Shown here piece after piece: positions 12,754 to 59,563 of a stretch of 64,000 bases of DNA. Numbering within the stretch: position 1 is the stretch's first letter; the number at the start of each line of letters is the position of its first letter. The notes under the pieces were generated by a model that was not told the origin of the DNA, made no database searches, and worked only from the letters and a program-made list of their open reading frames with translations. The position numbers were made by a program, and so were the translations under genes. The DNA lies in NCBI RefSeq assembly GCF_051105105.1, contig NZ_CP185339.1; one strand, 5' to 3'. Source of the stretch: Nannocystis pusilla (GTDB taxonomy: Bacteria > Myxococcota_A > Polyangia > Nannocystales > Nannocystaceae).

Positions 12754-13231
12754 CGCCCCGCAGTCTACACGGGCCCGTCTGCCGCGGACGGACGCGCCTC
12801 GGACCCTGGCGCGGCTCCTCGTCGTTCTGCCCGCGGATACTGGGTTTCTCGCCGGATCGCCCGCGAGCTCGCCACCGGTCACGACGAGGTAGCCGCTCGT
12901 GCCACCGCGCCCGGTCGCCAGCACCCATTTACCTGTCCTTCGCAACATGCCCCATGGAGCATAAGGCTCGCACCGGCCCGCTCGACCACGCGACCCATCG
13001 GCTCCCTGTCGCTCGAGCGACGCGCGGCACCCACCCGTGAATCAGCACGCGCGCGACGAAATGCCTCGACCGCCGCCGGGACCCCTGAAGCGGTGTGATG
13101 AATGGCGGATCGTCGAAACTGCCCGCGCATTGGCGAAAGCAGCCGCGCCGCGCGCATCACCGCTGCGGGTAACGCGTGCGGCCAGCGGAGCGGCCGCGGC
13201 GCATGTCACGGGCGACGCAAAAACGACGCGG

Positions 13232-13270
13232 CGCGCCTGCAGGTCACGGGACCTGCAGGCGCGCCGAATC
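13232..13270 (-). terminator. probable intrinsic terminator of csbD-like gene
   Basis: Perfect 16-bp inverted repeat ggcgcgcctgcaggtc-acggg-gacctgcaggcgcgcc. On the minus strand it is followed by a T-run (cgtcgTTTTTgcg), 34 bp downstream of the CsbD stop. Confidence 0.5.
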
Positions 13271-13303
13271 GCATCGCAGAGCGGCGCGGAGCGCCGACAA
13301 TCG

Positions 13304-13510
13304 TCACAGGTTGCTGTTGTTTTCGGCCTTGTAGCCGAGCTTGCGCTCGATCTCTTCGCGGCGCTCACCCGAGCGCTCCTGAATGATCCCGCACAGCTTG
13401 TCGGCGTTGCCTTCGGCCTTGAGGAAATCGTCGTCGGTCAGGTTCCCCCAGAACTGCTTCGCCTTGCCCTTGAGCTGCTCCCACTTCCCCTGAATTTGAT
13501 CGCGGTTCAT
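13304..13510 (-). CDS. csbD: CsbD-family general stress protein
   Basis: 68 aa: [48 protein letters not shown]...; canonical CsbD pattern. Confidence 0.8.
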
Positions 13511-14012
13511 GGTCGGTTTCTCCGCTCACCAGTTTGATCGTGGTTGCACCGCGCGCTCGCCCGACTAGCGCCACGAAACGGCGCCAGGCGCTCGGCGAAG
13601 GGCCTTGTCGGCCGTCGATTTCGGCGGCGCGTTCGCCATTCCCACCGTTCGCGCGCATGACGCAGGCCGATCGTACGAATCGGACCGCAGCGGGCTCGGC
13701 CGTCAGAACCTCTTCCTCCTCGGCCTCCGGGGCCGTTCTGTCGGGGACGCGGGCGTGCTGACGGGGGTATCGCCGGGCCCGCAGGGGAGACACCGATCGT
13801 CGCAGCGCCTTTCATGCGCGTCATGCGAAAGATCACCCGTCCTGCCGCGCTCGGCCCCCCTGCGCGCCCCACCACGAATCACCATTCGTGCGAATCATGG
13901 ACCCTCACGGGCTGCCGCGGCCGGGCCGGCCACGCGCTCGTCGGGGGTTCGCCGCGCCGCGGCCATCGGCCGGCGGGGCGCCTCGGGCACCGCGGACACC
14001 AAGGAGCATCGG

Positions 14013-27719: not shown

Positions 27720-28805
27720 ATGAGCGGAGTCGTATCACCGGAGTTCGCGCTCCCCTCGCCGGCGAGGGAGCCGGAGCTGCGCGCGCGGATCGGCGGACAG
27801 GTCCGCCCGCCGCGCGAGGTCGTGGTCATGCGCGCCCTGCCGGGCCTCGGCGACTTCCTGTGCGCCACCCCGGCGCTGCGGGCCCTGCGAGCCGCGCTGC
27901 CGCGGGCCAGGATCACCCTCTTGGGCCTCGCGCGGACCCGCGAGCTCGTCGCCCGCTACCCGCACCTCGTCGACGACCTGCTCGAGTTCCCCGGCTTCCC
28001 CGGCCTGCCCGAGACGCCCGCCGACGTGCGCGCCCTGCCCGACTTCCTGCGCGCCGTCCAGGGCCGCTTCGACCTCGCCCTGCAGATGCACGGCGACGGC
28101 CTCGTCAGCAACATCTTCGTTCAGCTGCTGGGCGCGCGCGCCAGCGCCGGCTTCTACGCCCCGCCGCAGCCGTGCCCCGATCCTGCGACCTTCGTGCTCT
28201 ACCCCGGCGACTTCGCCGAGCCGCGGATCCTCCTCGCCTTGCTCGCCGCGCTCGGCATCGAGGCGCGCGGCGAGCGGCTCGAGTTCCCGCTCGCGCCGGG
28301 CGACGCGCACCAGTGCGACGCGCTGCTGCAGGCCGCCGGCCTCTCGCCCGACGCCGCGTTCGCGGTCGTCCACCCCGGCGCCGCCGAGCCGCACCGCCGC
28401 GTCGACCCCGGCGTGCTCGGGCAGGTCGCCGACGGCCTGGTGACGCGCGGCCTCGCGGTCGTCCTCACCGGCGCCGCCGACGAGGCCGACCTCGCCGCCG
28501 CGGTCCGCCGCCACGCCGGACGCGACCTCGTCGATCTGGTCGGCCGCACCGGCCTCGGCTCGCTCGGCGCGCTGGTCGAGCGCGCCCGCCTCGTCGTCGC
28601 CGGCGACACCGGCGTCTCGCACCTGGCCAGCGCGCTGTCCACCCCGAGCGTCGTCGTCTTCCGCAGCACCGCGCCGGGCCGCTGGGCGCCCCTCGATCGC
28701 GAGCGTCACCGCGTCGTCGACGCCCGCGCGGTCCCGCCGACTTCCGCGGCCATCCTCGCCGAGGCCGACGCCGCCCTGTTCCTCGCGGGGGTGGATCGTG
28801 CTTGA
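27720..28805 (+). CDS. glycosyltransferase family 9 (LPS heptosyltransferase-like)
   Basis: VVVMRALPGLGDFLCATPALRALRAA, AVVHPGAAEPHRR, VAGDTGVSHLASALSTPSVVVF: the GT9 pattern. Confidence 0.75.
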   Translation: MSGVVSPEFALPSPAREPELRARIGGQVRPPREVVVMRALPGLGDFLCATPALRALRAALPRARITLLGLARTRELVARYPHLVDDLLEFPGFPGLPETPADVRALPDFLRAVQGRFDLALQMHGDGLVSNIFVQLLGARASAGFYAPPQPCPDPATFVLYPGDFAEPRILLALLAALGIEARGERLEFPLAPGDAHQCDALLQAAGLSPDAAFAVVHPGAAEPHRRVDPGVLGQVADGLVTRGLAVVLTGAADEADLAAAVRRHAGRDLVDLVGRTGLGSLGALVERARLVVAGDTGVSHLASALSTPSVVVFRSTAPGRWAPLDRERHRVVDARAVPPTSAAILAEADAALFLAGVDRA

Positions 28806-29320
28806 CCCGCGGGTCGCCCTCCGCCGCGCTCGCCGGCTGCTCGTCGTCCCGCCGGCGGCCGGCTGCGACGAGCTCGGGCCGGCGCTCGTGCGCCTGCGCG
28901 TCGCGGTGCCGCAGGCGATGGTGGTCCTGTTGGCCGACGCGCGCGCGGCCGGGCGCGTCGCCGCCTTCGTCGACCAGGTCGTGCCTGCCGGCGCCCTGAC
29001 GCGGTGCGACGCCCCGCACCTCTCGACCCTGGTCGAGCGGCTGGCCGCGGCGCGCCTCGACGCCGCTTCTGGTGTTTACGGCCGTCGGCGAGACCGCCTT
29101 CGAGGTCGCCTACCTCGCCTATCTCGCCGGCATCCCGGTGCGCGCCGGCTTCGCCGGCGAGTTCGGCGGCGGCGTGCTCGCGCCGGCCGTCCCGCCCCCG
29201 TCGGCCCGCGTCATCGGTCCGGGGCGTCACCTCTCCCTGCTCGACGCGCTCGACCTGAGCGCGGCGCTCGCCCCCGCGAGCGCGAAAGCGAGGCCCTCGT
29301 GCGACGACTCCGCGTCCTGA
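28798..29320 (+). CDS. GT9-like N-terminal-domain protein, short and internally frameshifted (possible gene fragment)
   Basis: Segments LLVVP...VVLLADARAAGRV and (next frame) VFTAVGETAFEVAYLAYLAGIPVRAGF resemble the first GT9 Rossmann domain. Only ~170 aa, and the frame changes near 29066. Confidence 0.3.
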
Positions 29321-30430
29321 CCTGGCACGTTCACGGCAGCTACCTCTACTACCTCACCCAGGCGCCGCACGAGTTCTACCTGCCCGTAAAGCCAGGTCGA
29401 CCCGAGGGCTACGGCGGGCGCAGCGGCAGCTTCGCCTGGGGCGCCAACGTCCACGAGGTCCCGGTGGAGGCCCTCGCGCAGCAGCAGTTCGACGTCGTCC
29501 TGTTCCAGTCGCGCCGCAACTACGAGTGCGACCAATTCGAGGTCCTCGGCGCCGCCCAGCGCCGGCTGCCGCGCGTCTACCTCGAGCACGATCCGCCGCG
29601 CGAGTCGCCGACCGACACCCGCCACCCGGTCGACGACCCCGACGTCTCTGCTCGTCCACGTCACCCCGTTCAACGCCCTGATGTGGGACGCCGGGCGCAC
29701 CCCCGTGCGGGTCGTCGAGCACGGCGTCGTCGTCCCCGACGACGCCGCCTACAGCGGCGAGCTCGCGCGCGGCATCGTCGTCGTCAACGACCTCGCGCGG
29801 CGCGGGCGTCGGCTCGGCCGCGACGTGTTCGACCGCGTGCGCGCCCACGTCCCGCTCGACCTCGCCGGCATGGACTCGGCCGCGCTCGGCGGCCTCGGCG
29901 ACCTGCCGCTGCGCGAGCTCCACGCCCGGCTCGGCCGCTACCGCTTCTTCTTCAACCCGATCCGCTACACCAGCCTCGGCCTGGCGGTGTGCGAGGCGAT
30001 GATGATCGGCCTGCCGATCCTCGGCCTCGCCACCACCGAGATGAGCACCGCCGTGCAGAGCGGCGTCAACGGCTACGTCGAGACCGACCTCGACCGCCTG
30101 CTCGCGCACATGCGGCGCCTGCTCGCCGACCCCGCCGAGGCCGCCGAGCTGGCCGCCGGCGCGCGCCGGATCGCCCGCCAGCGGTTCGGCATCGGCCGCT
30201 TCGCCGCCGATTGGTCGCGGGTCCTGGGCGAGGTCACCGGATGTCCCGAGGGACAGCTCGTCGCGCCGATACCGGGATGTCCCGAGGGACAGCTCGTCGC
30301 GCCCGCCGCCGGATGTCCCGAGGGACAGCTCGTCGCGCCCGCCACCGGATGCCCCGAGGACCAGCTCGTCCCGCCGATCACCACCTGTCCCGCGGGACAG
30401 GCCCCCGAGCCGGCCCGGAGGACCGCGTGA
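29299..30430 (+). CDS. glycosyltransferase family 4 with C-terminal GCPEGQLVAPxx 12-aa tandem repeats; +1 frameshift near 29655
   Basis: GTG start (VRRLRVLTWHVHGSYLYY). GT4 C-terminal domain FFNPIRYTSLGLAVCEAMMIGLPILGLATTEMSTAVQSGVNGYV in ORF 29681..30430. The two ORFs join at gacgtcTctg. Confidence 0.65.
30239..30410 (+). repeat. 36-bp in-frame tandem repeat (x4.5) encoding GCPEGQLVAPxx
   Basis: ggatgtcccgagggacagctcgtcgcgcc repeated with 36-bp period inside the 3' end of the GT4 gene. Confidence 0.8.
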
Positions 30431-32298
30431 AGCCGCTGCCGTTCGAGACCGGCGCGGGCGTCGGTCAGCCGCAGAGCCCGCTGCGGATCGCCATGATCAG
30501 CGAGCACGCCTCGCCGCTCGCCCCGCTCGGCGGGCGCGACAGCGGCGGCCAGAACGTCTACGTCGCCCAGGTCGCGCGCCACCTCGGCCGCCTCGGCCAC
30601 CGCGTCGACGTGTTCACCCGCCGCGACAGCCCGACCTTGCCGACGGTCGTCGAGCTGGCCGACGGCGTGCGCGTGATCCCGGTCGACGCCGGCCCGCCCG
30701 CGCCGCTGGCCAAGGAGTCGCTGCTGCCGCTCATGCCCGCGTTCACCCGCGAGGTCGCGGCCCACGCCCGGCGCGAGCGCTACGACCTGGCCCACGCCAA
30801 CTTCTTCATGAGCGGCCTCGTCGCCGCCGACCTCAAGCGCGAGCTCGGCGTCCCGTTCGCGGTCACCTTCCACGCGCTCGGCAAGGTCCGGCGCCAGCAC
30901 CAGGGCCAGGCCGACGGCTTCCCCGACGAGCGCTTCGCCATCGAGGAGCGGGTCGTCGGCGAGGCCGACGTGATCGTCGCCGAGTGTCCGCAGGACGAGG
31001 TCGACCTCATGACCCTCTACTCGGCCGACCCCGAGAAGCTCGTCATGGTCCCGTGCGGCTTCGACCCCGAGGAGTTCTGGCCGGGCGGACGCGCCGAGGC
31101 CCGCGCCGCGCTCGGCCTCGCCGACGGCGACCGCATCATCTTGCAGCTCGGGCGCATGGTCCCGCGCAAGGGCGTCGACAACGTCATCCGCGCGCTCGCG
31201 CGGCTGCCGGGCGAGCTGCGGGCGCGGCTCGTCGTCGTCGGCGGCGAGTCGCGCCGGCCCGACCCGGCGCTCACCCCCGAGATCGGCCGATTGATGGCAG
31301 TCGCCCGCGACGAGGGCGTCGCGGATCGCGTCACCTTCGTCGGCAGCCGCGGCCGCGGCGAGCTGCGCGACTACTACGTCGCCGCCGACGTGTTCGTCAG
31401 CACCCCCTGGTACGAGCCGTTCGGCATCACCCCGCTCGAGGCCATGGCCTGCGGCGTCCCCGTCATCGGCGCCAACGTCGGCGGCATCGCCCACACCGTC
31501 GCCCACGGCGAGACCGGCTACCTCGTCCCGCCGAGCGACCCCGACGCCCTGGCCGACAAGCTCGCGCTCGTGTTGTCGCAGCCGCGCCTGGCCCGGCGCC
31601 TGGCCCAGCTCGGCCTGCAGCGCGTCCACGCCCTCTTCACCTGGGAGAAGGTCGCCGCGCGCCTGGCCGACGCCTTCGCCGCGGCCGCCGGCCGGCGCCC
31701 CGCCCAGGCGCCCACCGCCGCCTTCGCCGCCGTCGACCGCGGCTTCGACGACCTGCTCGCGGTGCTCTCGCGCGCCAAGACCTGCCTGCGCGACGACATC
31801 GTCCGCGCCGCCGACCTCGTCAGCGGCGCCTTCGCCCGCGGCGGCAAGGTGCTCGTGTGCGGCAACGGCGGCAGCGCCACCGACGCCCAGCACTTCGCCG
31901 CCGAGCTCGTCGGCCGCTTCCTCGCCCCCGACCGCGCCGCCTTGCCGGTCATCGCCCTCAACGCCGACACCGCGGTGCTGACCGCCTGGGCCAACGACGT
32001 TGGCTACGCCGACGTGTTCGCCCGCCAGGTCCGCGCCTACGGCCGCCCCGGCGACGTGGTGTTCGGCATCTCGACCAGCGGTCGCTCGGCCAACGTCGTC
32101 GCCGCCCTCAAGACCGCGCGCGACTGCGGCCTGCGCACCTTCGCCTTGCTCGGCGGCACCGGCGGCGAGGCCGGCGACCTCGCCGACTGCGCCCTCATCG
32201 TCCCCTCGCCCGACACACAGCGCATTCAGGAGGTCCACACATTGGCCCTGCACCTGATCTGCGAGCTGGTCGAGGCGCGGGTCGCCCCGCTATCCTGA
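30421..32298 (+). CDS. fusion protein: GT4 glycosyltransferase (MshA-like) + SIS-domain sedoheptulose-7-phosphate isomerase (GmhA)
   Basis: N-terminal part RIAMISEHASPLAPLGGRDSGGQNVYVAQVARHLGRLGHRVDVFTRR ... EPFGITPLEAMACGVPVI (GT4 E-x7-E). C-terminal 190 aa GGKVLVCGNGGSATDAQHFAAELVGRF...VFGISTSGRSANVV...IQEVHTLALHLICELVE matches GmhA. One continuous frame, no stop between the two domains. Confidence 0.75.
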   Translation, partial: DRVKPLPFETGAGVGQPQSPLRIAMISEHASPLAPLGGRDSGGQNVYVAQVARHLGRLGHRVDVFTRRDSPTLPTVVELADGVRVIPVDAGPPAPLAKESLLPLMPAFTREVAAHARRERYDLAHANFFMSGLVAADLKRELGVPFAVTFHALGKVRRQHQGQADGFPDERFAIEERVVGEADVIVAECPQDEVDLMTLYSADPEKLVMVPCGFDPEEFWPGGRAEARAALGLADGDRIILQLGRMVPRKGVDNVIRALARLPGELRARLVVVGGESRRPDPALTPEIGRLMAVARDEGVADRVTFVGSRGRGELRDYYVAADVFVSTPWYEPFGITPLEAMACGVPVIGANVGGIAHTVAHGETGYLVPPSDPDALADKLALVLSQPRLARRLAQLGLQRVHALFTWEKVAARLADAFAAAAGRRPAQAPTAAFAAVDRGFDDLLAVLSRAKTCLRDDIVRAADLVSGAFARGGKVLVCGNGGSATDAQHFAAELVGRFLAPDRAALPVIALNADTAVLTAWANDVGYADVFARQVRAYGRPGDVVFGISTSGRSANVVAALKTARDCGLRTFALLGGTGGEAGDLADCALIVPSPDTQRIQEVHTLALHLICELVEARVAPLS

Positions 32299-32424
32299 AA
32301 TCATCGCACTCGGAGGACCGATGACCCTCGTGATCGCATCACCCCTCGTCACCGGCGGCCCGGGCCTCTGCCTGAAATCATCGCACTCGGAGGACCGATG
32401 ACCCTCGTGATCGAATCACCCCTC
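32294..32424 (+). repeat. 77-bp-period direct duplication of the RBS/start region of the downstream SDR gene
   Basis: cctgaaatcatcgcactcggaggaccgATGaccctcgtgatcg(c/a)atcacccctcg occurs at 32294..32347 and 32371..32424. Confidence 0.85.
32321..32401 (+). CDS. 26-aa upstream ORF created by the duplication (MTLVIASPLVTGGPGLCLKSSHSEDR), stop overlapping the SDR start (ATGA)
   Basis: Same RBS (GGAGGA) and first 6 codons as the SDR gene. The stop TGA at 32399..32401 overlaps the ATG at 32398..32400. Confidence 0.3.
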   Translation: MTLVIASPLVTGGPGLCLKSSHSEDR

Positions 32425-33139
32425 GCGGACAAGATCGTGCTCGTCACCGGCGGCGGCTCGGGCCTCGGCGCCGAGATCGCCCGCACCCTCGCGGCCGCCG
32501 GCGCGCACGTGATCGCCGCCGACATCCAGACCGGCCCGCTCGCCCGCCTCGTCGCCGAGGTGCGCGACCTCGGCGGCCACATCGAGGCCGCCGAGCTCGA
32601 ACGTCCGCGACGCCGACGCCGGGCAGTCCTTGATCGACGCCATCGTCGCCCGCCACGGCCGGTTCGACGTCCTCGTCAACAACGCCGGCACCGACAAGAC
32701 CCTCGCCGTCGACGAGCTCAGCGTCGACGACATCGACCGCGTCCTCGCGGTCAACCTGCGCGGCCCGTTCGTCCTCAGCCGCGCCGCCTTCCCCCAGCTG
32801 CGCGCCCAGGGCGGCGGCTACATCGTCAACATCGTCTCGACCGCCGCCAAGCGGGCCTGGCAGAACGCCAGCGCCTACCACGCCAGCAAGTGGGGCCTCC
32901 TCGGCCTGTCGCACGCCCTGCACGTCGAGGGCCGCCCGTTCGGCATCAAGGTCACCGCCCTGCTGGCCGGCGGCATGCGCACCCCCTTCATCCTCGACCG
33001 CTTCCCCGACACCCCGATCACCAACCTTCAGGACCCGCGCAACGTCGCCGAGACCATCCGCTTCCTCCTCGCCATGCCCGGCGAGTCGGTCATCCCCGAG
33101 CTGATGGTCGTGCCGATGCGCGAGACGAGCTGGCCATGA
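32398..33139 (+). CDS. SDR-family oxidoreductase (LPS/sugar-modification cluster); +1 frameshift near 32598
   Basis: IVLVTGGGSGLGAEIAR. Second half in ORF 32630..33139 (VLVNNAGT, YHASKWGLLGL). The halves join when the extra A in ctcgaACGTC is removed. Confidence 0.7.
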
Positions 33140-33721
33140 CCCGCCTCCGCCCCGCCGCCTTCCTCGACAAGGACGGCACCCTCATCGACGACGTCCCCTA
33201 CAACGTCGACCCCGCCCACGTCCGCCTCACCCGCGGCGCCCGCGACGGCGCCTGGTCGCTGCGGGCCGCCGGCTACGCGCTCGTCGTCGTCACCAACCAG
33301 TCCGGCGTCGCCCGCGGCCTGTTCAGCGCCCACGACCTGCTCGGCGTCCAGGCCCGCGTCGAGGACCTGCTCGGCCTCGAGCTCGACGGCTTCTACTGGT
33401 GCCCGCACCTGCCCGCCGGCGTCGTCGCCGAGTACGCCGTCGTCTGCGGCTGCCGCAAGCCCGCGCCCGGCCTGCTCACCCGCGCCGCCGCCGAGCCTCG
33501 GCCTCGACCTGGCGCGCTCGTGGATGATCGGCGACATCGCCAGCGACGTCGAGGCCGGCCGCCGCGCCGGCTGCCGCACCGCCCTGCTCGCCGCCGCGCC
33601 GCCCCCGACGCTCCGCCCCGCGCCCACCCTCGTCGCCGCCGACCTCGCCGAGGCCGCCCGCCGGATCGTCGGCGACTCCCCCCGCAGCGACCACGACGAG
33701 CACCCCGCGCCCCTCGCCTGA
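33136..33721 (+). CDS. gmhB: D-glycero-beta-D-manno-heptose-1,7-bisphosphate 7-phosphatase (GmhB, HAD family); +1 frameshift near 33497
   Basis: AAFLDKDGTLIDD (HAD motif I), VVVTNQSGVARG, CPHLPAGVVAEYAVVCGCRKP (Zn-binding Cys cluster). Continues in ORF 33524..33721 (MIGDIASDVEAGRRAG). Junction at gagCctc. Start overlaps the SDR stop (ATGA). Confidence 0.7.
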
Positions 33722-33768
33722 GCGCCCGCGATGTCCCCCCGACGCCCACGATCGCCGGACCGTTCAGA

Positions 33769-33834
33769 CATGTCCTTTTCGACATGTCTAAAAAACAACG
33801 TCCGAACGGACATGTTCTCGGCGGCATGTTTTAA
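33769..33834. promoter_or_regulatory. motif cluster upstream of hldE (copy C): CATGTCC-N7-CATGTCT, GGACATGTTC and CATGTTTTAA
   Basis: cagaCATGTCCttttcgaCATGTCtaaaaaacaacgtccgaacGGACATGTTctcggcggCATGTTTTAAaag. Ends 28 bp before the hldE ATG. Confidence 0.45.
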
Positions 33835-33861
33835 AAGACACCTTCACCCGGAGCGCCCGCG

Positions 33862-35325
33862 ATGACTCACGTCCTGCTCCCCGTGCTCGACGCCTTCGCC
33901 GACCTGCGGACCCTCGTGATCGGCGAGGCCATGCTCGACGCCTACCTCGACGGCCACAGCGAGCGGCTGTGCCGCGAGGCCCCGGTGCCCGTCGTCGACG
34001 TCGACGCGCGCCGCAACGTCCCCGGCGGCGGCGCCAACACGGCCGTCAACGCGGCCGCGCTCGGGGCCCGGGTCACCTTCCTCTCCGTCGTCGGCGGCGA
34101 CGACGAGGCCGACCGTCTGGCCCGCGCCCTGGCCGCCCTCGGCGTGCCCGCCCACGGCCTCGTGCGCGCCGGCGGGCGCCGCACGCTCGTCAAGCAGCGC
34201 GTCCTCGCCGGCGGCCAGATCCTCCTGCGCCTCGACGCCGGCAGCCGCGACGACCTCGACCCCGTCACCGAGGCGCGCCTGTGCGAGCGCCTGCGGGCCG
34301 CCTGGGGCGACGTCGACGCGGTCATCGTCTCCGACTACGGCTACGGCGTCCTCACGGGCGGCGTGATCGACGAGATCGCCGCGCTGCAGGCCGCCCACCC
34401 GCGCGTGCTCGTGGCCGACGCCAAGGACCTGCGCCGGCTCGCGCGCGCCCGGCCCACCGCCGTCAAGCCCAACTACTGCGAGGCCGCGCGCCTGCTCGGC
34501 CTCAGCAACGGCCACGGCGACGGCCGCGTCGAGCAGATCGCCGCCCACGAGGCCGAGTTCCTGCAGATCACCGGCGCGCGGATCGCCGCCGTCACCCTCG
34601 ACTGCGCCGGCGCCCTGGTCTTCGAGACAGGTCAGCCCGCCTACCGCACCTACGCCCGGCCCTCGTCCGACGCCAACGCCACCGGCGCCGGCGACACCTT
34701 CGTCGGCGCCCTCGCCCTCGCCCTCGCCGCCGGCGCCCCGACCCACGCCTGCGCCGACCTGGCCTCCAGCGCCGCCAGCCTGGTGGTCGCGCGCGACGGC
34801 ACCACCGCCTGCAGCGCCGCCGAGCTGCGGGTCCACCTGGCCTCGCAGGACAAGCTGCTCGGCCACGACGACCTCGCCCTGCTCGCCGACTGCCTGCACC
34901 GCGCCGGCAAGCGGCTCGTGTTCACCAACGGCTGCTTCGACATCCTCCACCGCGGCCACATCACCTGCCTCAGCCGCGCCAAGGCGCTCGGCGACGTCCT
35001 GATCGTCGGCCTCAACGCCGACGCCAGCGTCCGCCGGCTCAAGGGCGCCGCCCGCCCGATCAACTGCGCCGCCGATCGGGCCCAGGTGCTGGCCGCCCTC
35101 TCGTGCGTCGACCACATCGTCGAGTTCGCCGACGACACCCCGACCCGCCTCATCGAGCTCGCGCGGCCCGACGTCTACGTCAAGGGCGGCGACTACAGCC
35201 TCGACAAGCTGCCCGAGGCCCCGCTCGTGTCGCGCCTCGGCGGCGAGGTCTGCTTCATGCCGTACCTCGACGACTTCAGCACCACCGGGCTTTTGGCCCG
35301 GCTCGGCGAACGGGGCCCGGGATGA
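33862..35325 (+). CDS. hldE: bifunctional D-beta-D-heptose 7-phosphate kinase / D-beta-D-heptose 1-phosphate adenylyltransferase
   Basis: N-terminal ribokinase-like domain (VLVIGEAMLDAY, ATGAGDTFVGAL). C-terminal cytidylyltransferase domain (LVFTNGCFDILHRGHITCLSRAKALGDVLIVGLN). Confidence 0.85.
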   Translation: MTHVLLPVLDAFADLRTLVIGEAMLDAYLDGHSERLCREAPVPVVDVDARRNVPGGGANTAVNAAALGARVTFLSVVGGDDEADRLARALAALGVPAHGLVRAGGRRTLVKQRVLAGGQILLRLDAGSRDDLDPVTEARLCERLRAAWGDVDAVIVSDYGYGVLTGGVIDEIAALQAAHPRVLVADAKDLRRLARARPTAVKPNYCEAARLLGLSNGHGDGRVEQIAAHEAEFLQITGARIAAVTLDCAGALVFETGQPAYRTYARPSSDANATGAGDTFVGALALALAAGAPTHACADLASSAASLVVARDGTTACSAAELRVHLASQDKLLGHDDLALLADCLHRAGKRLVFTNGCFDILHRGHITCLSRAKALGDVLIVGLNADASVRRLKGAARPINCAADRAQVLAALSCVDHIVEFADDTPTRLIELARPDVYVKGGDYSLDKLPEAPLVSRLGGEVCFMPYLDDFSTTGLLARLGERGPG

Positions 35326-37885: not shown

Positions 37886-37999
37886 AGCCCGGTCCACCTG
37901 CGGCGTGCGCGAGAGCTGAGAGCGAGCCGCAGCGTCGCCGCGACGGCAGGCCGCTGACCTGCCGCGCGTCCGACCGAGCTCGCTACGAGCGCGGCGCCG

Positions 38000-38542
38000 C
38001 TACGGCGCGGGGCACATGCCCTTGTCGTTGTACCCGTTGTAAAACAGCCCGCGGCAACGTCCGCAGTAGCGCCATTGCCCCTGGCCGATCGAGCTATTGC
38101 CGCCTTGATGGTCATTCGGCAGGTAGAACACCCAACCGACGGGGGAGTGCTCCCCGCCTGCGGGACATACCGAGCCGAGGCTCTGATTGCCTGGTGCCCA
38201 GAACAGGCCGTGGCACTTGCCGCAGAACCGCCAGTCTCGTTGGCCCGTGCTGTCGGTCGCGCCCATCTGATCGTTCGGGAGATAGAAGTTCAACCCCTGG
38301 AGAGCGTGTTCCCCTCCGGACGGGCATACGGTGCCGACTGTCTCCCCATTTTGCGCATAGAACATCCCGAAGCACTTGCGGCAGAACCGCCAGTCCTCCT
38401 GGCCGGGGAGCGCGGGGGCCCCCGCGGCGTCATTGGGGATGAAGAACTCCCAGCCCGCGGCGACGTGCCCGCCGACTCTGGAATGTTGGCACCCGTCGCG
38501 CCGATCGGCGAAAGGCGCGCCGTTCGAATGGTCTTTCGTCAT
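38000..38542 (-). CDS. small Cys-rich protein with three ~49-aa tandem repeats of unknown function
   Basis: Repeat pattern Q.DWRFC.KC.G(L/M)F.......G.VCP.GGEH...G..FYLPND occurs three times (WRFCRKCFGMFY, WRFCGKCHGLFW, WRYCGRCRGLFY). Each repeat carries C-x2-C...C-x4-H, suggesting a metal-binding knuckle. Good GC3. No signal peptide. Confidence 0.55.
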   Translation of the reverse strand: MTKDHSNGAPFADRRDGCQHSRVGGHVAAGWEFFIPNDAAGAPALPGQEDWRFCRKCFGMFYAQNGETVGTVCPSGGEHALQGLNFYLPNDQMGATDSTGQRDWRFCGKCHGLFWAPGNQSLGSVCPAGGEHSPVGWVFYLPNDHQGGNSSIGQGQWRYCGRCRGLFYNGYNDKGMCPAP

Positions 38543-39139
38543 GGTCTCCTCCGATTCCAGGAAACGATGCCTCGAGACGGACCCCCGGCCGGCCGAATCG
38601 TGGTGCCGACCACAGCAGCGCCACGAAATCGCTCGCCCCGCGGAAGACATCGCGCTTTGTCGCCACGACACGGCGGAGCCTTCTCGGTCGGAGCGCAGCA
38701 GCGAACCTCGGAGCGCGCGAGGAGCACGCAGGGCCCGGCCCGGGCGCCGAGGACGACGCACGAGCGCTCCCGCAGCGCCGGTCTTACGGCCTCGCGCCGC
38801 CGCCCCGGACCGATTTCGCGCCCTTCCTGGGCCGGCCGCGCCACGGGGTCCCGCCTGCGAGCACCCGGACTCGCATCATTCGCAAATCTCGAGTCTGCTG
38901 CAGCAGCCTGAAGTATCGACGCCCCGAGCTGCGGCTGAGACCGTCCCACGGCCCGCGGCGCACCGATCGATCCGGCCGCCGCGCACCGTGCGCGATCGCC
39001 TGAGACCCGGCATCGAGCGCAAACGGGACCCCCAGCAGAGCGGCCCGCACACCCCTCTACGCCCCATCCCCTGCGATTAGTGGGAACCGCCGCGCAGGCA
39101 ACTGCCAACAAAATCTCCCCCGAGGAGGGAACACTCGCC

Positions 39140-39325
39140 ATGCATCTCGAACGAGTCGAAACCCGATCGGAACAGAGCCACGGCACCGCCGTGGAGCCGT
39201 GGAGCAACCTCGACGAGGACGACTTTCTCCTCGCGGCCGAGGCCAGCCTCGAAGCGCTGTACGAAGGTGAGGACGAGGAGGAGCTGTCCCCGGACGACAT
39301 CGAGGAATTGCCCGAAGATCCGTAG
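39140..39325 (+). CDS. small acidic hypothetical protein
   Basis: MHLERVETRSEQSHGTAVEPWSNLDEDDFLLAAEASLEALYEGEDEEELSPDDIEELPEDP. Short and compositionally biased; may be spurious. Confidence 0.25.
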   Translation: MHLERVETRSEQSHGTAVEPWSNLDEDDFLLAAEASLEALYEGEDEEELSPDDIEELPEDP

Positions 39326-39641
39326 GCCGATCTTGCCGTCCGGTCCGACATCCGGGACCCGCCGCTCTACATAATCTCTACATCACCCAGACTTGCTCAC
39401 CGCCGGGCACCGCGCAGACCGCTGATACCCATCATGGCCCTCGCCCCGAGGAGTGATTGCCACCCGGACTGACGCCCGCGCCATGGCTCGGAGCCTCGCC
39501 TCGGCGCCTGCCTGACGCAGCGCGCCGCGGGACGCCCGGCGCCTCGGCGCCTGCCTGATGCAGCTCCCCGCGCGACGCCCGGCCGGGACTCTCACAGCGG
39601 CTCCGCCGTCCCGCCCCGTCCTGCGGCATCATGGCGCTGCC

Positions 39642-40454
39642 ATGCGGTTCGGTCCCGGACAGTTTTTCGGCCGCTTCGAGCGACGGCGTACGGCTCACGG
39701 CCTGGCGCTCGCCGATCTGCGGCCGACCGTGCCCGAGCACGAGGTTCACCGGCACACCCACGAGGACGCCCACTTTCTGCTCTTGCTCGCCGGTCGCTAT
39801 CTCAGCAGCGCGCGCGGCATGCCGGCCGTCTGCGAGCACCCCGCGCTCGTCCTCAACCCGCCGGGCACCACCCACCAGGATCGCTTTCGCGGCCTCGACG
39901 GCCGCTTCTTCACCCTGTCCATCCCGGTCGCGGCCTGGCGAACCGCCGCCAACACCTGCCCGCTCCCCGACCACCCCGTGCGGCTGGGGACGGCGGCCCT
40001 GCTCGCGGGCTATCGCCTGTGCCACGAATTGCCGCGCTGGGACGATGCCTCGGCGCTCGTCGTCGAGTCCGAATATCACCTGCTCCTCGGCGAGGCCGCG
40101 CTCGACGCCCGCGAGCGGCGCTCGTCCGGACCGCCCTGGCTGGCTCGCGCGCGCGAGCAGCTGCACGACACCGGCGCCGCCACTCCGCGCCTGGCCGAGC
40201 TCGCCGCTGCCGCCGACGTCCACCCCGTGCACTTCTCGCGCGCCTTCCGGGCCCGCTACGGCCGCTCCCCCGGCGAGTACCTGCGCCACTGTCGCCTCGA
40301 GCGCGCCAGCGCCATGCTGCGGGACCTCCGCAACTCCCTCGCCGACATCGCGGCCCAGTGCGGCTACGTCGATCAGAGTCACTTCAGCCGCGCCTTTCAC
40401 CGCGCCTATCGGCTCACGCCCGCCGCCTTCCGCCGGCTCGTGCGGCCGGCCTGA
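39642..40454 (+). CDS. AraC-family transcriptional regulator
   Basis: C-terminal double HTH ([43 protein letters not shown]...[30 protein letters not shown]). Confidence 0.8.
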
Positions 40455-41681: not shown

Positions 41682-43517
41682 TCAGGCCAGCTCGCAGGCC
41701 ATGTGCGGGCGCTCGTCGGGCAGCGCGAACAGCGGCCGCTCGCGCGGGTGCTGCGACGGCGACAGCTCGTGCACGGCGCCGTCCTCGACGAACAGCACCC
41801 GGTCGAACAGCGACAGCAAGCTCCAGCGGTGGCACGCGGCCAGCACCGTCGCCTCGGGCGACGACTGGAAGATCGCGGCCAGCACCTCGCGCTCGGTCGG
41901 CGGATCGAGGGCCGCGGTCGGCTCGTCGAGCAGCAGCAAGTCCCGCGAATGCGCCCGCAGCAGCCCGCGGGCCAGCGCGATCCGCTGGCGCTCGCCGCCG
42001 GACAGGTTGAGGCCGCTCTGGGCCAGGTGCGTGTCCCAGCCCGCCGACAGCTTGGCGATCACCGGCCCCAGACGCGCCAGGCGGATCACCTGCGCCAGCA
42101 CCTCCTCCGGCACGGCTTCGCCGAGCGTCACGTTGTAGCGCAGCGTCTCCGAGAAGATCTGCGGCTCCTGCGGGATCAGCAGCGTGCGCTGGGCCAGCGC
42201 CTCGAACGAGCTGCGGCGGCCGTCGAACGCCACCTCGCCGGCCTCCGGGCGCAGCATCCCCGCCAGCAGCTTGAGCAGCGTCGACTTGCCGCCGCCGCTC
42301 GTGCCGACCACCGCGATCTTCTCGCCGCGGCGGATCGTCAGCGACCCGCAGCGGAGGGCCCGCTCGTCGCCCGCGTAGCTGAACGCCAGCGCGTCGAGCT
42401 GGAGCTCGCGCCAGCGCGGCGCGGCCGTCGACGCCGGGATCGCCGTCGGCGACCCGCGCAGCAGCTCGCTGGCGTCTTCGTAGGCCGTGCAGGCCTCGAC
42501 GATGTTGCCGTAGTAGGCCGAGAAGGAGCTGATCGCCCCGAAGATCTTGTCGAGGTAGGCGATGAGCACGTAGACCTGCGCCACGTCGAGCGCGGTGCCC
42601 TTCAGCCCGGCGCCGTGGAAGTACCATAGCAGCGACGTTGCCATCACCAGCGCGTAGCCGCAGCTCACCGCCCCCCACTTGAGCTCGCTGAAGCGCGACA
42701 CCCGGCGCACCAGCTCGCCGCCCTCGGCCCGCTGGCGCCCGAGGTCGGCGCAGGCCAGCGCCTCGAGGTTCAGCGTCTTCACCGTGACGACGTTCGTCAG
42801 GTAATCGACGCACACCCGGCCGACCTTGTTGTCGAATTGATTGACCAGGCGGATGTTGTCGACCATGCGGCGGTTGAAGTACAGCATCGCCGCGATCGTG
42901 ACCCCGCCCATGACCACCACGTTGGCGGCCACGCGCACGTCGAGGGCCCACAGCGCCACGCTGGCGAGCACCACCTTGACGCTGCCCTCCAGCACCTGCC
43001 ACGAATACTGGCCGACCACGTTGCCGACCGCGAGCGCCGAGCGGTTGAGCTTGGCCAGGTTCTCGCCGGTGTGGCGCTCGACGTGCCAGTGCAGCCCGTA
43101 GCCGAGCAGCGCCTGGAACACCCCCGTCATCGTCGTCATACGCGCCTGGTAGGCCACCCCGCTCTGCAGGTAGCGCCCCAGGTGGTGCAGCAGGATGCTG
43201 GCGAAGCGCAGCCCGAGGTAGGCGCCGATGCCGAGCAGCGCCCCCTCGTAGGCGACCTGCGAGAAGCCGTGCTCGACGAACACCCCGACCGTGTAGCCGA
43301 TGGCCCAGGGGACCAGCAGCTCGGCCGTGTTGGCGGCGATGAACAGGGCGACGAACGCCCAGAACCGCGACCGGCTGGGAGCCAGGGCCACCCAGGCGGC
43401 CCGCAGCAGCGGCGCCAGCCCGCGCACGGGCGGCAGCGGCCGCGCCGGCCCGGCCTGTTCGCGGGCGCCGACGCCCGCCCAGGACAACGGCGAGAGGAAA
43501 CGAGCGAGTGCGTGCAT
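41682..43517 (-). CDS. ABC transporter fused permease/ATP-binding protein (type I exporter, MsbA/peptide-exporter-like)
   Basis: Six TM segments N-terminally. Walker A GTSGGGKST. Signature LSGGERQRIALARGL. Walker B LLLLDEPTAALD. Confidence 0.85.
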   Translation of the reverse strand: MHALARFLSPLSWAGVGAREQAGPARPLPPVRGLAPLLRAAWVALAPSRSRFWAFVALFIAANTAELLVPWAIGYTVGVFVEHGFSQVAYEGALLGIGAYLGLRFASILLHHLGRYLQSGVAYQARMTTMTGVFQALLGYGLHWHVERHTGENLAKLNRSALAVGNVVGQYSWQVLEGSVKVVLASVALWALDVRVAANVVVMGGVTIAAMLYFNRRMVDNIRLVNQFDNKVGRVCVDYLTNVVTVKTLNLEALACADLGRQRAEGGELVRRVSRFSELKWGAVSCGYALVMATSLLWYFHGAGLKGTALDVAQVYVLIAYLDKIFGAISSFSAYYGNIVEACTAYEDASELLRGSPTAIPASTAAPRWRELQLDALAFSYAGDERALRCGSLTIRRGEKIAVVGTSGGGKSTLLKLLAGMLRPEAGEVAFDGRRSSFEALAQRTLLIPQEPQIFSETLRYNVTLGEAVPEEVLAQVIRLARLGPVIAKLSAGWDTHLAQSGLNLSGGERQRIALARGLLRAHSRDLLLLDEPTAALDPPTEREVLAAIFQSSPEATVLAACHRWSLLSLFDRVLFVEDGAVHELSPSQHPRERPLFALPDERPHMACELA

Positions 43518-44254
43518 GATCACCAATCGGCGCCGGAGGACCGGGTCGAAGGGGCGCTCAGCCCCGCAGCTCCACGAGGTTCGCAACGAACGATCGTGCG
43601 CGGATAAAAGAGGTTCTCGGGCAGGGACGGCGCGTCGGCGTGATCATGAGGAATGAACGTCGGTGCGAAGGCATCGAAATGCGTAGAGTCCAGGGAAGGC
43701 GAGGACGTCCTCCGACGATCGCTCGCAGCAGCAGAGGCGGCTCACTATAACAGACGGCCGTCCGCCGCCGCCACCCATGAATCGCAGCGGCGGCGGCTCC
43801 GCCGGCGGAGCGAGCGCCGCGCCGCCCCGCGCCTATGATCATAGCGCTCTCGCCGATCGCCCTGCGTCCGCGAATGAGAGACCCTCTCACGGATCGCGAC
43901 AATCGGTCGCAGCCTCGCCGCACCGAGCATGCACCAGCGCCAATCGCCGCGATCTCACGCCGTGCTGGCGCGCGGGCCCCAGACGGCCCTCTCTGCCGGC
44001 ATTTGCCCCCGCTTCGCTGTTGCGGCCCGCCGGCGCGTGTTCTCCTCGGCAGAGTCCGCTGACTCACCGGTCCCGGCGCCGGGGAAGCCCCCGAATCGCG
44101 CCTCGCCCGGCCCTGCGAACCCTACCGGCGTTCCCCCCAGCGCGGGGGTATTTGCCAGGTTGACCCCTGTCCCCGCCGCGATTTAGCCCGGTACGATGCC
44201 CCCCGCGACGAGCAAACCCGGCAGCGCTCCCGCGACGAGACCATCGTCTGCAAT

Positions 44255-44788
44255 TTGACGTATCAAGCCCGGCGCTTCCTGGTGCTCCGCGGCGACCTCG
44301 CGTCGACGGGCGACGATCGAGCGCTGCAGCCGCGCTCGGAGATCGAGGCGAGGTTCGAATCACTGTGGCAGACGGCGCTCGAGCCGGCGCTGCGAGACGG
44401 TCACGAGCTTACGTTCGCCGAGGTCGAGGCGCGGCTGGGACCGCATCCGCTGCTCAAGTCGAAGCGCCGCTACCGCGAATGCGACTGGCTCGGCGCGGTG
44501 TTCATCGCGCGGCTCAGCCCGGACGGAGCCTCCTGCGAGCACCTGTGGCCGGTCTCGCCGCGGCCCGATCCGCGCCGGCTCGAGATCCACTTCCCCGACG
44601 CCGCCGCCCTGGCCCGCTTCCGCGCCGCCGCCCACCGCGCCCGACGCGAGCCCGACGAGCTGGCCGCCTGTCTCCTCGACGGCTTCGCTGCCGACGCCCC
44701 CGCCGGTCAAGTCGCCGACGACGCCGCCCAGGACCCTTCCTCGGGCCCGGAAGCCGCCGACCACGCCCCGCGCCGCCTCCCCTCGTGA
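44255..44788 (+). CDS. hypothetical protein
   Basis: 177-aa ORF with strong GC3 bias. No recognisable domain. Confidence 0.4.
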   Translation: MTYQARRFLVLRGDLASTGDDRALQPRSEIEARFESLWQTALEPALRDGHELTFAEVEARLGPHPLLKSKRRYRECDWLGAVFIARLSPDGASCEHLWPVSPRPDPRRLEIHFPDAAALARFRAAAHRARREPDELAACLLDGFAADAPAGQVADDAAQDPSSGPEAADHAPRRLPS

Positions 44789-45219
44789 CCGCCCGGAACG
44801 CTCGCCCCGACCGCTCGCGGCGCCACGACGATTCGGAGCCACGCGCGCCGACCTCGCCCTCGCGGTGATTCGCGGCGACGACCTCACGATCGGCCTCGGA
44901 GCGCGTCGCCGCGGATGACTCGCGCTACGAGCCGAGCGTGACGACACGGGTGACTCGGCGGCCGAGCCGACGCGCCTGCGATTGCTCGCGGCGACTCGCC
45001 AAAGCCATTCAACGCACCGGGAGCGCACCGGACTCCTCGGTCCGCGTCCCCAGCGTGCTGATGCGACGAACCCGGCCGCCGCTCCCAAAATCACCGCTCG
45101 GCCAGGCGACGATGCTTTGCGCCCGCCTGACTCCCCGCTCGCGGCAATGCCATGATTCCCCCGCGCTTCGACGCTGCGGATGACGCCGCGAATATCGCCT
45201 CGCGGCCGCCCGCGCGACC

Positions 45220-45810
45220 AGCCCGTGCCGCCATGCCGACGAGACCCCACTCCTTCGCGGCCGTCCGCCCCGCCCGACCGGCCCGTGCCGCAGGCCGCCC
45301 TGATGCCGACGACACCGCGATCCCTCAATTCGCGGCCGCCCGCCCGCCCGACCGGCCCATGCCGCAATGCGAACAGGCGGCCTGATTCCGACGAAGCCCC
45401 AATTCCCTCCATTTGCGGCCGTCCCCCCGCCCGACCCGTGCCGCAATGCGAACAGGCGGCCTTGATGCCGAGCGAACAGGCAGCCCTGACGCCGACGGCG
45501 CGCCGATTCCTCAATCTGCGGCCGGCCACCCGCCCGACGGAGCCGCAATGCGAACAGGCGGCCCTGATGCCGAGCGAACAGGTAGCCCTGATGCCGACGA
45601 CGCGCCGATTCCTCAATCTGCGGCCGGCCACCCGCCCGACCGGAGCCGCCATGCGAACACGCCGCCCTGATACCGACGACGCCGCAATTCGTCAATTCGC
45701 TGCTCCACGGATTGGCGCCCGTCCGCCCCGCCCGCACAACCCTGGCCGCAATGCGAACAACCGCCTTGACGAGACGGCGCCGCGATTCGCGGCCGGCCGC
45801 CCGCGCGGCC
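45220..45810. repeat. tandem repeat array 1 (~100-110 bp units, 24-bp sub-repeats gcgaacagg(c/t)rgccctgatgccga), core CGCAATGCGA
   Basis: About 5 imperfect units, each containing cgccgattcctcaatctgcggccggccacccgcccgac and gccgcaatgcgaacaggcggccctgatgccgagcgaacagg. Confidence 0.8.
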
Positions 45811-45884
45811 GGCCGTACCGCAGGCGGTCCCGGCACCGCACGAGGAGAAGCCGGAGCTCGCGCGATGGAGGTCCGCCGAGACTG

Positions 45885-46289
45885 TCAGCGCTGGCGGTGC
45901 CCGCCGCCCTGTCCGCCGCCCTGCCCGCCGCCGCGCTGTTGCGACTGCGACGAGCGGCGCTCACGCTCCTCGTCCGTCCCGCGGCCTCCCTCCTCGCCGC
46001 GGCCCTCGCCGGAGCGGCGGCCGCCGTGCGACGCGTGGCCGCCTTTGGCGCCGATCTCCGCCATGTGCTCGCGATCCTGGCTGACCGCCTCGCCGCCCTT
46101 GCGTCCGGCCTCGCGCGCCTCCTCGGACGTGAACTCGTGCGCGGTGCCCTTCTCGTGGGCGGCGTGGCCGCCCTTGCTGGCGATCTCGCGTTGTTTGTCC
46201 TCGTCCATTCCGGCGAAGCCGCGCCCACCGCCGCGCTGGCCCTTGTTCTCGCCCTTGTTCTCGTTGCGGTTGTCGTCCCTGGTAGGCAT
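45885..46289 (-). CDS. KGG-repeat general stress protein (YciG/con-10-like)
   Basis: IASKGGHAAHEKG, AGRKGGEAV, IGAKGGHASHGG: KGG repeats, Gly/Glu/Arg-rich tail. Confidence 0.7.
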   Translation of the reverse strand: MPTRDDNRNENKGENKGQRGGGRGFAGMDEDKQREIASKGGHAAHEKGTAHEFTSEEAREAGRKGGEAVSQDREHMAEIGAKGGHASHGGRRSGEGRGEEGGRGTDEERERRSSQSQQRGGGQGGGQGGGHRQR

Positions 46290-47829: not shown

Positions 47830-48530
47830 GCCTGCTCGCATTGTCCGGCCGCCTGCTCGCATTGCCGGCGGCCGACTCGCATTGCGCGGTCGCTCGTGAG
47901 CGGTGAAATCCCGACCGCCTGCTCGCATTGCCGGGCTGCCGCATGGCCTGGCCGCTTGCTCACGTTGCGCAGGCCCTCGCCCGCGAGGCGCGGCCCGGCC
48001 GCTTGCTCACGTTGCGCAGGCCCTCGCCCGCGAGGCGCGGCCTGGCCGCCCGCATTGCGCAATCGCTCGTCCGTGATGCGAGCTTGGCCGCCCGCATTGC
48101 GCAATCGCTCATCAGCGATGCGAGCCTGGCCGCTCGCTCGCATTGCGCAGTCCCTCGCCCGCGGCCCCCGCTCGCATTGCGCAGTCCCTCGCCCGCGATG
48201 CGAGCCGGCCCCCTCGCATTGCGCAGTCGCTCGTCCGCGATGCGAGCCCGGCCGCCCCCTCGCATCGCGCAGTCCCTCGCCCGCGATGCGAGCCCGGCCG
48301 CCCCCTCGCATTGCGCAGACGCTCGCCCGCGATGCGAGCTCGGCCACCCCCTCGCATTGCGCAGTCGCTCGTCCGCGATGCGGCCTGGCCGCCCGCTCGC
48401 ATCGCGCAGTCCCTCGCCCGCGATGCGAGCCCGGCCGCCCCCTCGCATCGCGCAGTCCCTCGCCCGCGATGCGAGCTCGGCCGCCCCCTCGCATCGCCTG
48501 GCCGCCCGCTCGACGCCCGCCCAATCGCCG
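47830..48530. repeat. tandem repeat array 2 (~47-bp units x ~14) with internal imperfect hairpin CTCGCATTGCG...CGCGATGCGAG; inverted relative to array 1
   Basis: Unit ctcgcattgcgcagtccctcgcccgcgatgcgagcccggccgccccc. Both the hairpin-forming part and the spacer-like part are conserved. Confidence 0.85.
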
Positions 48531-48808
48531 AGCCCGCCCGTCGCCGGCCCGAAAGTCATTCAACGTAGCAGCCGCCGGGTCGGGGGCCAGCGCGGCGCGC
48601 TCGTCCGATCGGGGGTGGCTCGCGCCGCGGCGTCTCGGGCGTGCCGAGCCCGACGTTGCGTTCGTGCGCCACCTACGCCGAGGCATTCGCGGCCAGCGAG
48701 GCCATGCACGCGGCCCGTGGCTCGCGCGCCGCGGCTCCGATCGAGTCGCACGAATGGTGGCCCGCGCGGGCGATTCGATCAAAGACCTGCGCGACCGGAG
48801 AATTCATC

Positions 48809-50638: not shown

Positions 50639-55258
<4,620 letters not shown>

Positions 55259-55415
55259 CCGTCACGACGGCATCCGCGTCGAGCTGCACATCCCGCTCGC
55301 CGACGGCGGACCGTCACGACGGCATCCGCGTCGCGCTGCACATCCCGCGCGCCGAGAGCGGACCGTCACGACGGCACGCGGCGAGCTGCACATCGCCCTC
55401 GCCGAGGGCGGCTCG

Positions 55416-57949: not shown

Positions 57950-58330
57950 CGAAGAGCCCCGCTCTCCTCCGCCCGCCGGGCAACATCACTGTCCGCGGAG
58001 AGCTCCGCCCTTCGCCCGTCAGGAAACATCACAGTCCGCGAAGGACCCCGCCCTCCCTCCTGCGCCGCACTCCTCCGCCCGCCAGGAAACATCACGGTCC
58101 GCAAAAAGCCCCGCCCTCCCTCCTGCGCCGCACTCCTCACGCCCGTCGGGAAACATCGCTGTCCGTGAAGAGCCCCGCCCTCCTCCTCCGCCCGCCGGGA
58201 AACATCCCTGTCCGCCGAGAGCCCCACGCTCTCTGCTTCGCCCGCCGGGAAACATCCCTGTCCGCGCAGGACCCCGCCTCCCTCCTTCGCCGCTCTCCTC
58301 CGCCCGCCGGGCCGAAGCCAGCCTCGTCGC
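57950..58330. repeat. tandem repeat array 3 (~57-bp units x ~6), core CCGCCCGCCGGGAAACATCCCTGTCCGC
   Basis: Units separated by gagccccgccctccctcctgcgccgcactcct. Contains short palindrome GGGAaacaTCCC. Confidence 0.8.
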
Positions 58331-59514: not shown

Positions 59515-59563
59515 CGCCGCCACAGGTCGTGCCATCGGGACGCGCACGAGAAAGGAACCGACC

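Follow-up and report, generated by a model that had tools for sequence, protein, structure and literature searches.

The start region of an SDR (short-chain dehydrogenase/reductase) gene is duplicated in tandem in a 64-kb window of Nannocystis pusilla contig NZ_CP185339.1 (the window being the whole stretch of 64,000 nucleotides analyzed here). The extra copy has its own Shine-Dalgarno (SD) sequence and start codon, which open a 26-codon upstream open reading frame (uORF) whose stop codon overlaps the genuine SDR start. Comparison with related loci shows that the duplication is real, inherited, and variable in copy number among strains of the N. pusilla group. We consider it reasonably probable that this is a tolerated tandem duplication of the minisatellite type, whose extra starts are probably used but which has no dedicated regulatory role.

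A repeat search identified a 55-nt direct repeat at positions 32294-32348 (copy 1) and 32371-32425 (copy 2) of the window (+ strand, as are all features of this locus given with coordinates below), with 54 of 55 positions identical and a start-to-start distance of 77 nt. This agrees with an earlier note, made from the sequence alone, in which a segment of ~54 bp was described as present twice, 77 bp apart. The note had placed the repeat directly after the stop codon of the upstream gene, which encodes a fusion of a GT4 glycosyltransferase with a SIS (GmhA-like) domain; in fact, the repeat begins 2 nt before that stop codon (TGA, 32296-32298) and includes it. The 28-nt core of the repeat, AATCATCGCACTCGGAGGACCGATGACC, occurs exactly twice in the window and was absent from 100 dinucleotide-preserving shuffles. 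Homology runs past the 55-nt block, such that 32294-32370 corresponds to 32371-32468 if copy 1 is taken to have lost 18 nt at one place and 3 nt at another. The larger deletion has CTCG on either side, and the smaller one falls within a GGCGGCGGC run. Read in this way, the extra 77-nt unit (32294-32370), which has homologous units in three other sequences, is a decayed duplicate of ~98 nt that comprised the final bases of the fusion gene with its stop codon, a 22-nt spacer with the SD, and SDR codons 1-24, beginning with the ATG. The 55-nt block of copy 2 contains the genuine SDR spacer, SD, and start; it is identical to the single-copy junction of strains RBIL2 and ILAH1 and nearly identical to that of N. 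exedens.

Both copies contain the GGAGGA ribosome-binding site (RBS), the ATG, and the first SDR codons, as the note had it, with GGAGGA 3 nt upstream of its own ATG in each. The SD-like sequence of the extra copy (32312-32317, before the ATG at 32321) lies inside a 17-nt block that is invariant across extra copies, and that of the genuine start (32389-32394) is kept in close relatives. The uORF (32321-32401, 26 codons plus stop) encodes MTLVIASPLVTGGPGLCLKSSHSEDR, for which no Pfam match was found. Its TGA (32399-32401) overlaps the SDR ATG (32398-32400) to give the sequence ATGA at 32398-32401, just as had been described. The 77-nt repeat was not reported by TRF at default settings because there are only ~1.7 copies, which diverge after 55 nt. 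No dispersed copies of the unit were found elsewhere in the window; the unit is confined to this locus, which rules out a dispersed repeat or mobile element.

The comparison with orthologous loci for which the earlier note had called was made with 13 Nannocystis loci, window included, of which 4 carry the duplication and 9 do not. One extra copy, with a unit of 77 nt, is present in the window, in N. pusilla assembly L084, and in the soil-metagenome contig L087. N. pusilla Na p29 (L001) has three, with units of 80, 77, and 77 nt, the last two of which (copies B and C) are 100% identical. The remaining loci (RBIL2, ILAH1, soil contig L088, N. exedens, N. punicea, N. bainbridge, the contig with P0010, L089, and L090) have no extra copy, and their genes overlap or are separated by a spacer of 14-25 nt. 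Copy number is polymorphic across the set, with 0, 1, or 3 extra copies arranged head to tail. An exact-pattern scan of metagenome contigs (26 specified bases) for more environmental alleles found none.

All extra copies share three derived characters that distinguish them from every genuine start, namely a GAA>GCA change at codon 6, the 18-nt deletion, and a GGC>TGC or GGC>TCC change near the 3' end. These shared characters indicate one ancestral duplication, not recurrent events. The duplication is not recent, given that the extra copies differ by 10-18% between strains. Thus, the suggestion in the note of a recent slipped-strand duplication holds as regards a genuine tandem duplication, inherited and variable in copy number, but not as regards its age. 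In a neighbor-joining tree of the flanking coding sequence (1441 nt), the N. pusilla complex is star-like, with ~3% divergence, and the carriers are not monophyletic (37/300 bootstraps); the nearest neighbor of L087, with one extra copy, is L088, which has none. Copies must therefore have been lost or exchanged, as well as gained. Recombination inside the 55-nt identical block would remove an extra copy without a scar, which fits the non-monophyletic distribution of carriers.

An assembly artefact, which the earlier note had named among possible refutations, was also considered. The window assembly does contain many isolated +1 insertions, some of them context-specific (see below), which would be in keeping with an artefact in an error-prone long-read assembly. 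Nevertheless, the duplication is present in diverged form in three other independent assemblies, including that of a metagenome contig, and the window's own two copies are told apart by a substitution as well as by deletions of 18 nt and 3 nt, which recur in the other strains. The assembly of Na p29 is a Nanopore/Flye product, and those of RBIL2 and ILAH1 were made with PacBio HGAP (PMC10435759). Because the copies differ in sequence between strains across independent assemblies, obtained with different technologies, an artefact is excluded, and we give this explanation a negligible probability.

The extra copies differ by 10-18% between strains, as compared to 3-7% at third codon positions of the adjacent GT4-SIS gene. 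Thus, the uORF peptide is not under purifying selection, diverging at least as fast as silent sites. The five distinct uORF peptides (MTLVIASPLVTGGPGLCLKSSHSEDR, MTLVIASPLVTCGSGLCLESSHSEDR, MTRVIASTRVPGGARLSLESSPSEDR, MTRVFASSLATTDRSDLCIESSPSEDR, and MTRVIASLVTRGGSGPCIESSPSEDR) differ at most positions past residue 7, and agree mainly where the DNA doubles as the leader and SD of the next copy. Variation is distributed unevenly along the unit: 31 of 80 columns are variable, most of them in the 3' part (25 of the last 38 columns, as compared to 6 of the first 42). The arrangement of the uORF relative to the next start is kept throughout, and this is less easily dismissed. All six extra copies of the four genomes retain the ATGA stop-on-start overlap, with uORFs of 26-27 codons, and the indels inside the extra copies, of 18, 3, and 3 nt, are all multiples of three (the probability of three in-frame indels by chance is ~0.04). 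An A-run in the untranslated spacer, immediately ahead of the first SD, does vary by 1-2 nt (TGAATC, TGAAATC, and TGAAAAATC). A likely source of a constraint on geometry can be read from the frames downstream. Relative to the SDR ATG, the +1 frame is closed immediately by the TGA of ATGA, and the +2 frame is open for 439-459 codons through the SDR gene and the following GmhB-like gene. An active extra start that was moved into the +2 frame would send ribosomes out of frame across two genes.

The origin of the duplication can be set against the wider window, which holds ~7 other tandem arrays with periods of 36-137 nt. Because tandem arrays are common here, including across gene ends, duplication of this kind is a general habit of this genome, which favors a mutational over a designed origin.

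From these observations, the following course of events can be proposed. An ancestor of the N. pusilla complex would have duplicated ~98 nt in tandem, from the GT4-SIS stop codon to SDR codon 24. An 18-nt deletion between the two CTCG microhomologies would have left the upstream copy 80 nt long, and subsequent deletions of 3 nt would have brought it to 77 nt; unequal recombination would then have produced the 0, 1, or 3 extra copies that are observed. Because the unit length is 2 mod 3 and each start reads ATGA, all extra copies form complete modules of SD, ATG, and 26-27 codons that end on the next ATG. Ribosomes arriving from the GT4-SIS gene, or loaded at an extra SD, would translate a junk peptide and terminate at the next start. 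There they would reinitiate or vacate the genuine SD, itself intact whichever happens, such that expression of SDR and GmhB would be preserved. The coupling by termination and reinitiation is a reasonable mechanistic reading of the ATGA geometry. Selection would remove frame-breaking variants, keeping the translated duplicate harmless, and the peptide would evolve freely. We read the selection as one for harmlessness because the peptide evolves freely, frame-breaking indels are absent, and the non-SDR frame is open for ~440 codons.

Several points weigh against this explanation. Use of the extra start is deduced from sequence. The invariance of the 17-nt SD-ATG block in all extra copies (P = 6e-5 over the whole unit, and 0.03 within its conserved 5' part) would be equally well explained by gene conversion or unequal crossover from the genuine start. 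Such conversion would be a sufficient account because the conserved part of the unit gives way to the variable part at the 18-nt deletion and because copies B and C of Na p29 have a strain-specific leader variant, CAT, in common with the genuine copy of that strain. The conserved SD-ATG core was therefore considered, and rejected, as separate evidence of selection. The argument from multiples of three is suggestive only, as it involves just three indels, one of which is slippage in (GGC)3 and would be 3 nt regardless of selection. Finally, persistence of the module in at least three lineages, despite the ease with which it can be lost, could mean that it confers a small benefit.

The same observations can be arranged differently. 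If the extra SD and ATG are little used, whether because coupled ribosomes bypass them or because the mRNA context is poor, the array would be a fully neutral, untranslated minisatellite, and the ATGA geometry would reflect coincidence and gene conversion. The abundance of tandem arrays in the window is in keeping with this, as is the rate at which the 3' half of the unit evolves, which is at least that of silent sites; conversion could account for the invariant core, and the conserved frame amounts to three indels. However, none of the six extra copies departs from the genuine SD-ATG, which leaves no reason in the sequence for an extra one to be inactive, and all three internal indels are in frame, in contrast to the changes just upstream in the spacer, which are not multiples of three. 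We find a neutral array unlikely, albeit credible. The opposite possibility, that 0, 1, or 3 SD-uORF modules act as a contingency-like rheostat, heritably tuning translation of the heptose-pathway genes SDR and GmhB and hence a surface glycan, with heterogeneity supplied by unequal recombination, would make sense of a copy number that varies among close strains in a non-monophyletic manner, of the very recent expansion implied by the identity of copies B and C in Na p29, of a second copy-variable repeat in a neighboring glycosyltransferase gene of the glycan cluster, and of the persistence of an easily lost module in at least three lineages. Nevertheless, every allele leaves the genuine SD and ATG untouched, such that a large effect is not expected, and similar arrays occur at apparently unrelated sites in the window, which points to a general mutational propensity. 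A role as a rheostat thus seems quite unlikely. Similarly unlikely, in our estimation, is the idea of a heritable uORF ladder, in which the copy number of the minisatellite would set the number of termination-reinitiation steps between GT4-SIS and SDR/GmhB and so tune a heptose-modifying branch of the surface glycan.

The earlier note had offered a leader-peptide-type regulatory device as one interpretation. Under this hypothesis, translation of the 26-aa peptide would sense a metabolite or charged tRNA and control downstream expression by attenuation or through a cis-regulatory RNA, and one would expect the biosynthetic gene to be directly preceded by a short ORF whose SD is strong, as is the case here. 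The data argue against it. The peptide is not conserved between strains, and the uORF contains no regulatory codon run. No promoter-like or terminator-like site was found at the junction, and no alternative terminator/antiterminator hairpins at the leader ORF. The predicted fold of 32285-32440 (single strand) is no more stable than that of shuffled sequence (z = +0.78). An Rfam scan of 31800-32900 returned no family, the sole match being to a viral hairpin model outside the repeat (17 bits, where the gathering score is 70; E = 0.68). Moreover, the element is a decayed copy of the start of the gene itself, lies inside an operon, and is absent from 9 of the 13 related loci. A leader peptide is therefore very improbable, and we return to the tolerated, probably translated duplication as our preferred explanation.

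The genes on either side of the repeat differ in size from the long ORFs first read there. At 72.4% GC, the window contains long off-frame ORFs, and we delimited genes using a plot of GC content at third codon positions (GC3) by phase, together with a simple phase hidden Markov model (HMM). Both showed that the long ORFs flanking the repeat are composites. The upstream gene (30427-32298), as delimited by GC3 phase segmentation and Pfam matches to Glycos_transf_1, Glyco_transf_4, and SIS_2, encodes the GT4-SIS fusion, which is 623 aa long rather than 1166 aa; the "1166-aa ORF" is an artefact, off frame and due to high GC, that simply has no stop codons further upstream. The GTG start of the fusion gene overlaps the stop codon of the preceding gene (GTGA, 30427-30430), it ends at the TGA within the repeat, and its orthologues are annotated as 623 aa in seven Nannocystis genomes. 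The "478-aa ORF" that starts at 32398 is likewise not one gene; it joins the N-terminus of SDR to an out-of-frame stretch and then to the N-terminus of a GmhB-like HAD phosphatase.

The SDR frame does not run through: an extra A at about 32600 (CTCGAACGTC as opposed to CTCGACGTC) breaks it ~200 nt downstream of the SDR start, which the earlier note had missed. The part of SDR with the NNAG...YxxxK motifs is in another frame, which ends at 33139 in an ATGA overlap (33136-33139) with the start of the GmhB-like gene. Removal of the A at 32600 (CTCGAACGTC to CTCGACGTC) restores a gene (32398-33139) for a 246-aa protein that matches positions 1-186 of the 195 in Pfam adh_short and is 97-98% identical to intact 246-aa proteins of N. 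pusilla and close relatives, consistent with the frame plot. The public annotation contains only a 169-aa tail of this protein (window ORF 32630-33139). The GmhB-like phosphatase (33136-33721, from GC3 phase and Pfam) is 194 aa after removal of an extra C at about 33496; its orthologues are 193-195 aa. Further downstream are HldE (33862-35325) and then GT9 heptosyltransferases. Thus, the repeat is located at an internal junction of a heptose/glycosyltransferase operon, in which genuine junctions use 4-nt stop-start overlaps. A megablast search of 31500-34000 against PLSDB returned only weak matches (73-75% identity) to the SIS domain in Azospirillum plasmids, and a plasmid origin was rejected on that account.

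The GT4-SIS fusion is not confined to Nannocystis. Full-length matches with 45-61% identity were found in Cyanobacteria, Chloroflexota, Actinomycetota, Bacteroidota, and others (loci L002-L021, L052, L073, and L079), and many Betaproteobacteria have a match to the GT4 part only. Upstream in the same cluster, ~170 codons at 28796-29308, between a GT9 gene (27720-28805) and the next glycosyltransferase gene, have good GC3 phase, with a frame switch at ~29062-29067. This stretch resembles an N-terminal heptosyltransferase-like fragment and may be a separate gene or part of its neighbor.

The frame breaks in SDR and GmhB are two of several. Relative to N. pusilla Na p29, over an orthologous region of 14 kb (95.4% nucleotide identity), the window has ~9 isolated +1 insertions in coding sequence (at 25619, 29067, 29648, 30412, 32600, 33496, 33714, 37004, and 38141), and the same comparison found no single-base deletions in coding sequence. 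The insertions disrupt glycosyltransferase, SDR, GmhB-like, and GT9 genes that are intact in every relative; the products in relatives are 623, 246, and 193-195 aa for GT4-SIS, SDR, and GmhB-like, respectively. The 8-mer TCGAACGT/ACGTTCGA coincides exactly with a +1 switch of the GC3 coding phase in five of its six occurrences in the window (15637, 16376, 25616, 32597, and 37001, but not 17349). Na p29 reads TCGACGT at the three such sites that L001 covers, and 41 sites with TCGACGT/ACGTCGA are unaffected. This pattern looks like a context-specific insertion error, possibly related to methylation or to the basecaller, which truncates conserved genes. Because the breaks are isolated +1 insertions only, because the 8-mer coincides with phase switches, and because the genes are intact in every relative, the SDR and GmhB frame breaks are most likely consensus errors of this kind. 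Genuine pseudogenization of the cluster is less likely on the same grounds. The case carries a warning for the annotation of genomes with 72% GC, in that long off-frame ORFs concealed two frame breaks and led to two mis-sized genes.

Some of the other tandem arrays also touch genes. The gene immediately upstream of GT4-SIS, a glycosyltransferase gene at 29309-30430, has in its C-terminal tail a 36-nt coding repeat of ~4.6 copies (30235-30400) that encodes the peptide GCPEGQLVAP. This repeat is copy-variable: Na p29 has an additional 252 nt, and relatives have products of 328, 352, or 434 aa. At 55215-55426, a 52-nt unit is present ~4 times. A histidine-kinase-like gene, whose product ends in GHGTRVELHVPLADG, contributes its final 44 nt and its TGA stop (55256-55258) to the first copy; later copies have GGA where the first has TGA. 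The array occupies the whole space before a convergent gene, which ends at 55416, and forms a 3'-end counterpart of the duplicated SDR start region. Four further arrays are apparently intergenic, falling in stretches that are non-coding by the GC3 model: 45250-45680 (period ~83-102 nt, 3 copies), 47945-48550 (46 nt, ~12 copies), 58009-58297 (49-63 nt, ~3-6 copies), and 39497-39582 (43 nt, 2 copies). More generally, six stretches of 1-2.4 kb each lack a clear GC3 coding phase (843-2193, 12683-13951, 37905-39695, 43499-45887, 56774-58595, and 59297-60694), which is unusual for a bacterial chromosome with 72% GC; some of them overlap the tandem arrays.

If translation of the uORF and selection on its frame are as proposed, the N. 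pusilla complex offers a natural allelic series, with 0, 1, or 3 copies and diverged peptides, for the birth of uORFs from a tandem duplication that spans a start codon. It would show that duplications and indels survive only if they let the new ORF terminate at the genuine start, and it would provide a simple system for the study of termination-reinitiation and RBS occlusion outside model organisms. Were the uORF ladder to be true, it would constitute a contingency-type locus in a social, predatory myxobacterium that operates through translational coupling, not through switching of frame or promoter.

Several known systems share features with this locus. In trpL-type transcription attenuation, a short translated ORF is found upstream of biosynthetic genes. 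The uORF likewise precedes a biosynthetic gene, but it differs from such attenuators in having no alternative hairpins or terminator, no regulatory codons, and no peptide conservation, and in not being at the 5' end of a transcript. Repeat-driven contingency loci are known in surface-glycan genes, for example, those in which simple-sequence repeats cause phase variation in Haemophilus (PMC12721329). As in bacterial variable-number tandem repeats (VNTRs) and contingency loci, the repeats described here are arranged head to tail, vary in number between strains, lie in a glycan cluster, and would be altered by slippage or unequal recombination. In contrast to the Haemophilus type, the unit is long (77-80 nt) and comprises a whole translation-start module, and all frames and the genuine RBS stay intact. 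There is thus no obvious ON/OFF switch of the kind found in a phase-variable locus: all alleles keep the genuine SD, ATG, and frame, and there is no promoter-like site at the junction.

With respect to mechanism, the closest parallels are uORFs that have their own SD and act by translational coupling, such as that upstream of Escherichia coli iraD (PMC5574718) and those in a survey of upstream RBSs (uRBS) in S. meliloti (PMC13285730). The Nannocystis uORF has the same geometry, with an SD and start that open a short ORF directly upstream of the main gene and a stop that overlaps or abuts the main start, which would allow reinitiation or unmasking of the RBS. Unlike iraD-type uORFs, the Nannocystis element, known here from its sequence, is a decayed paralogue of the main gene's own start, is variable in copy number, and is chained head to tail; moreover, it sits inside an operon with a cistron on either side, is lacking in most relatives, and has no evident regulatory input from an RNA-binding protein or RNA structure. 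Stop-start overlaps (ATGA or GTGA) are also known to couple adjacent cistrons by termination-reinitiation (PMC2268962). The same 4-nt overlap is found here, including at the genuine junctions of this operon (GTGA at 30427-30430 and ATGA at 33136-33139), except that the upstream "cistron" at the duplicated start is a 26-codon junk ORF born of duplication. Thus, the mechanistic class to which the uORF would belong is known, and a limited literature search found no description of a copy-variable array made from a gene's own start region. By origin, the duplicated module is a VNTR, or minisatellite, with head-to-tail units, polymorphic copy number, and homology established by shared derived characters.

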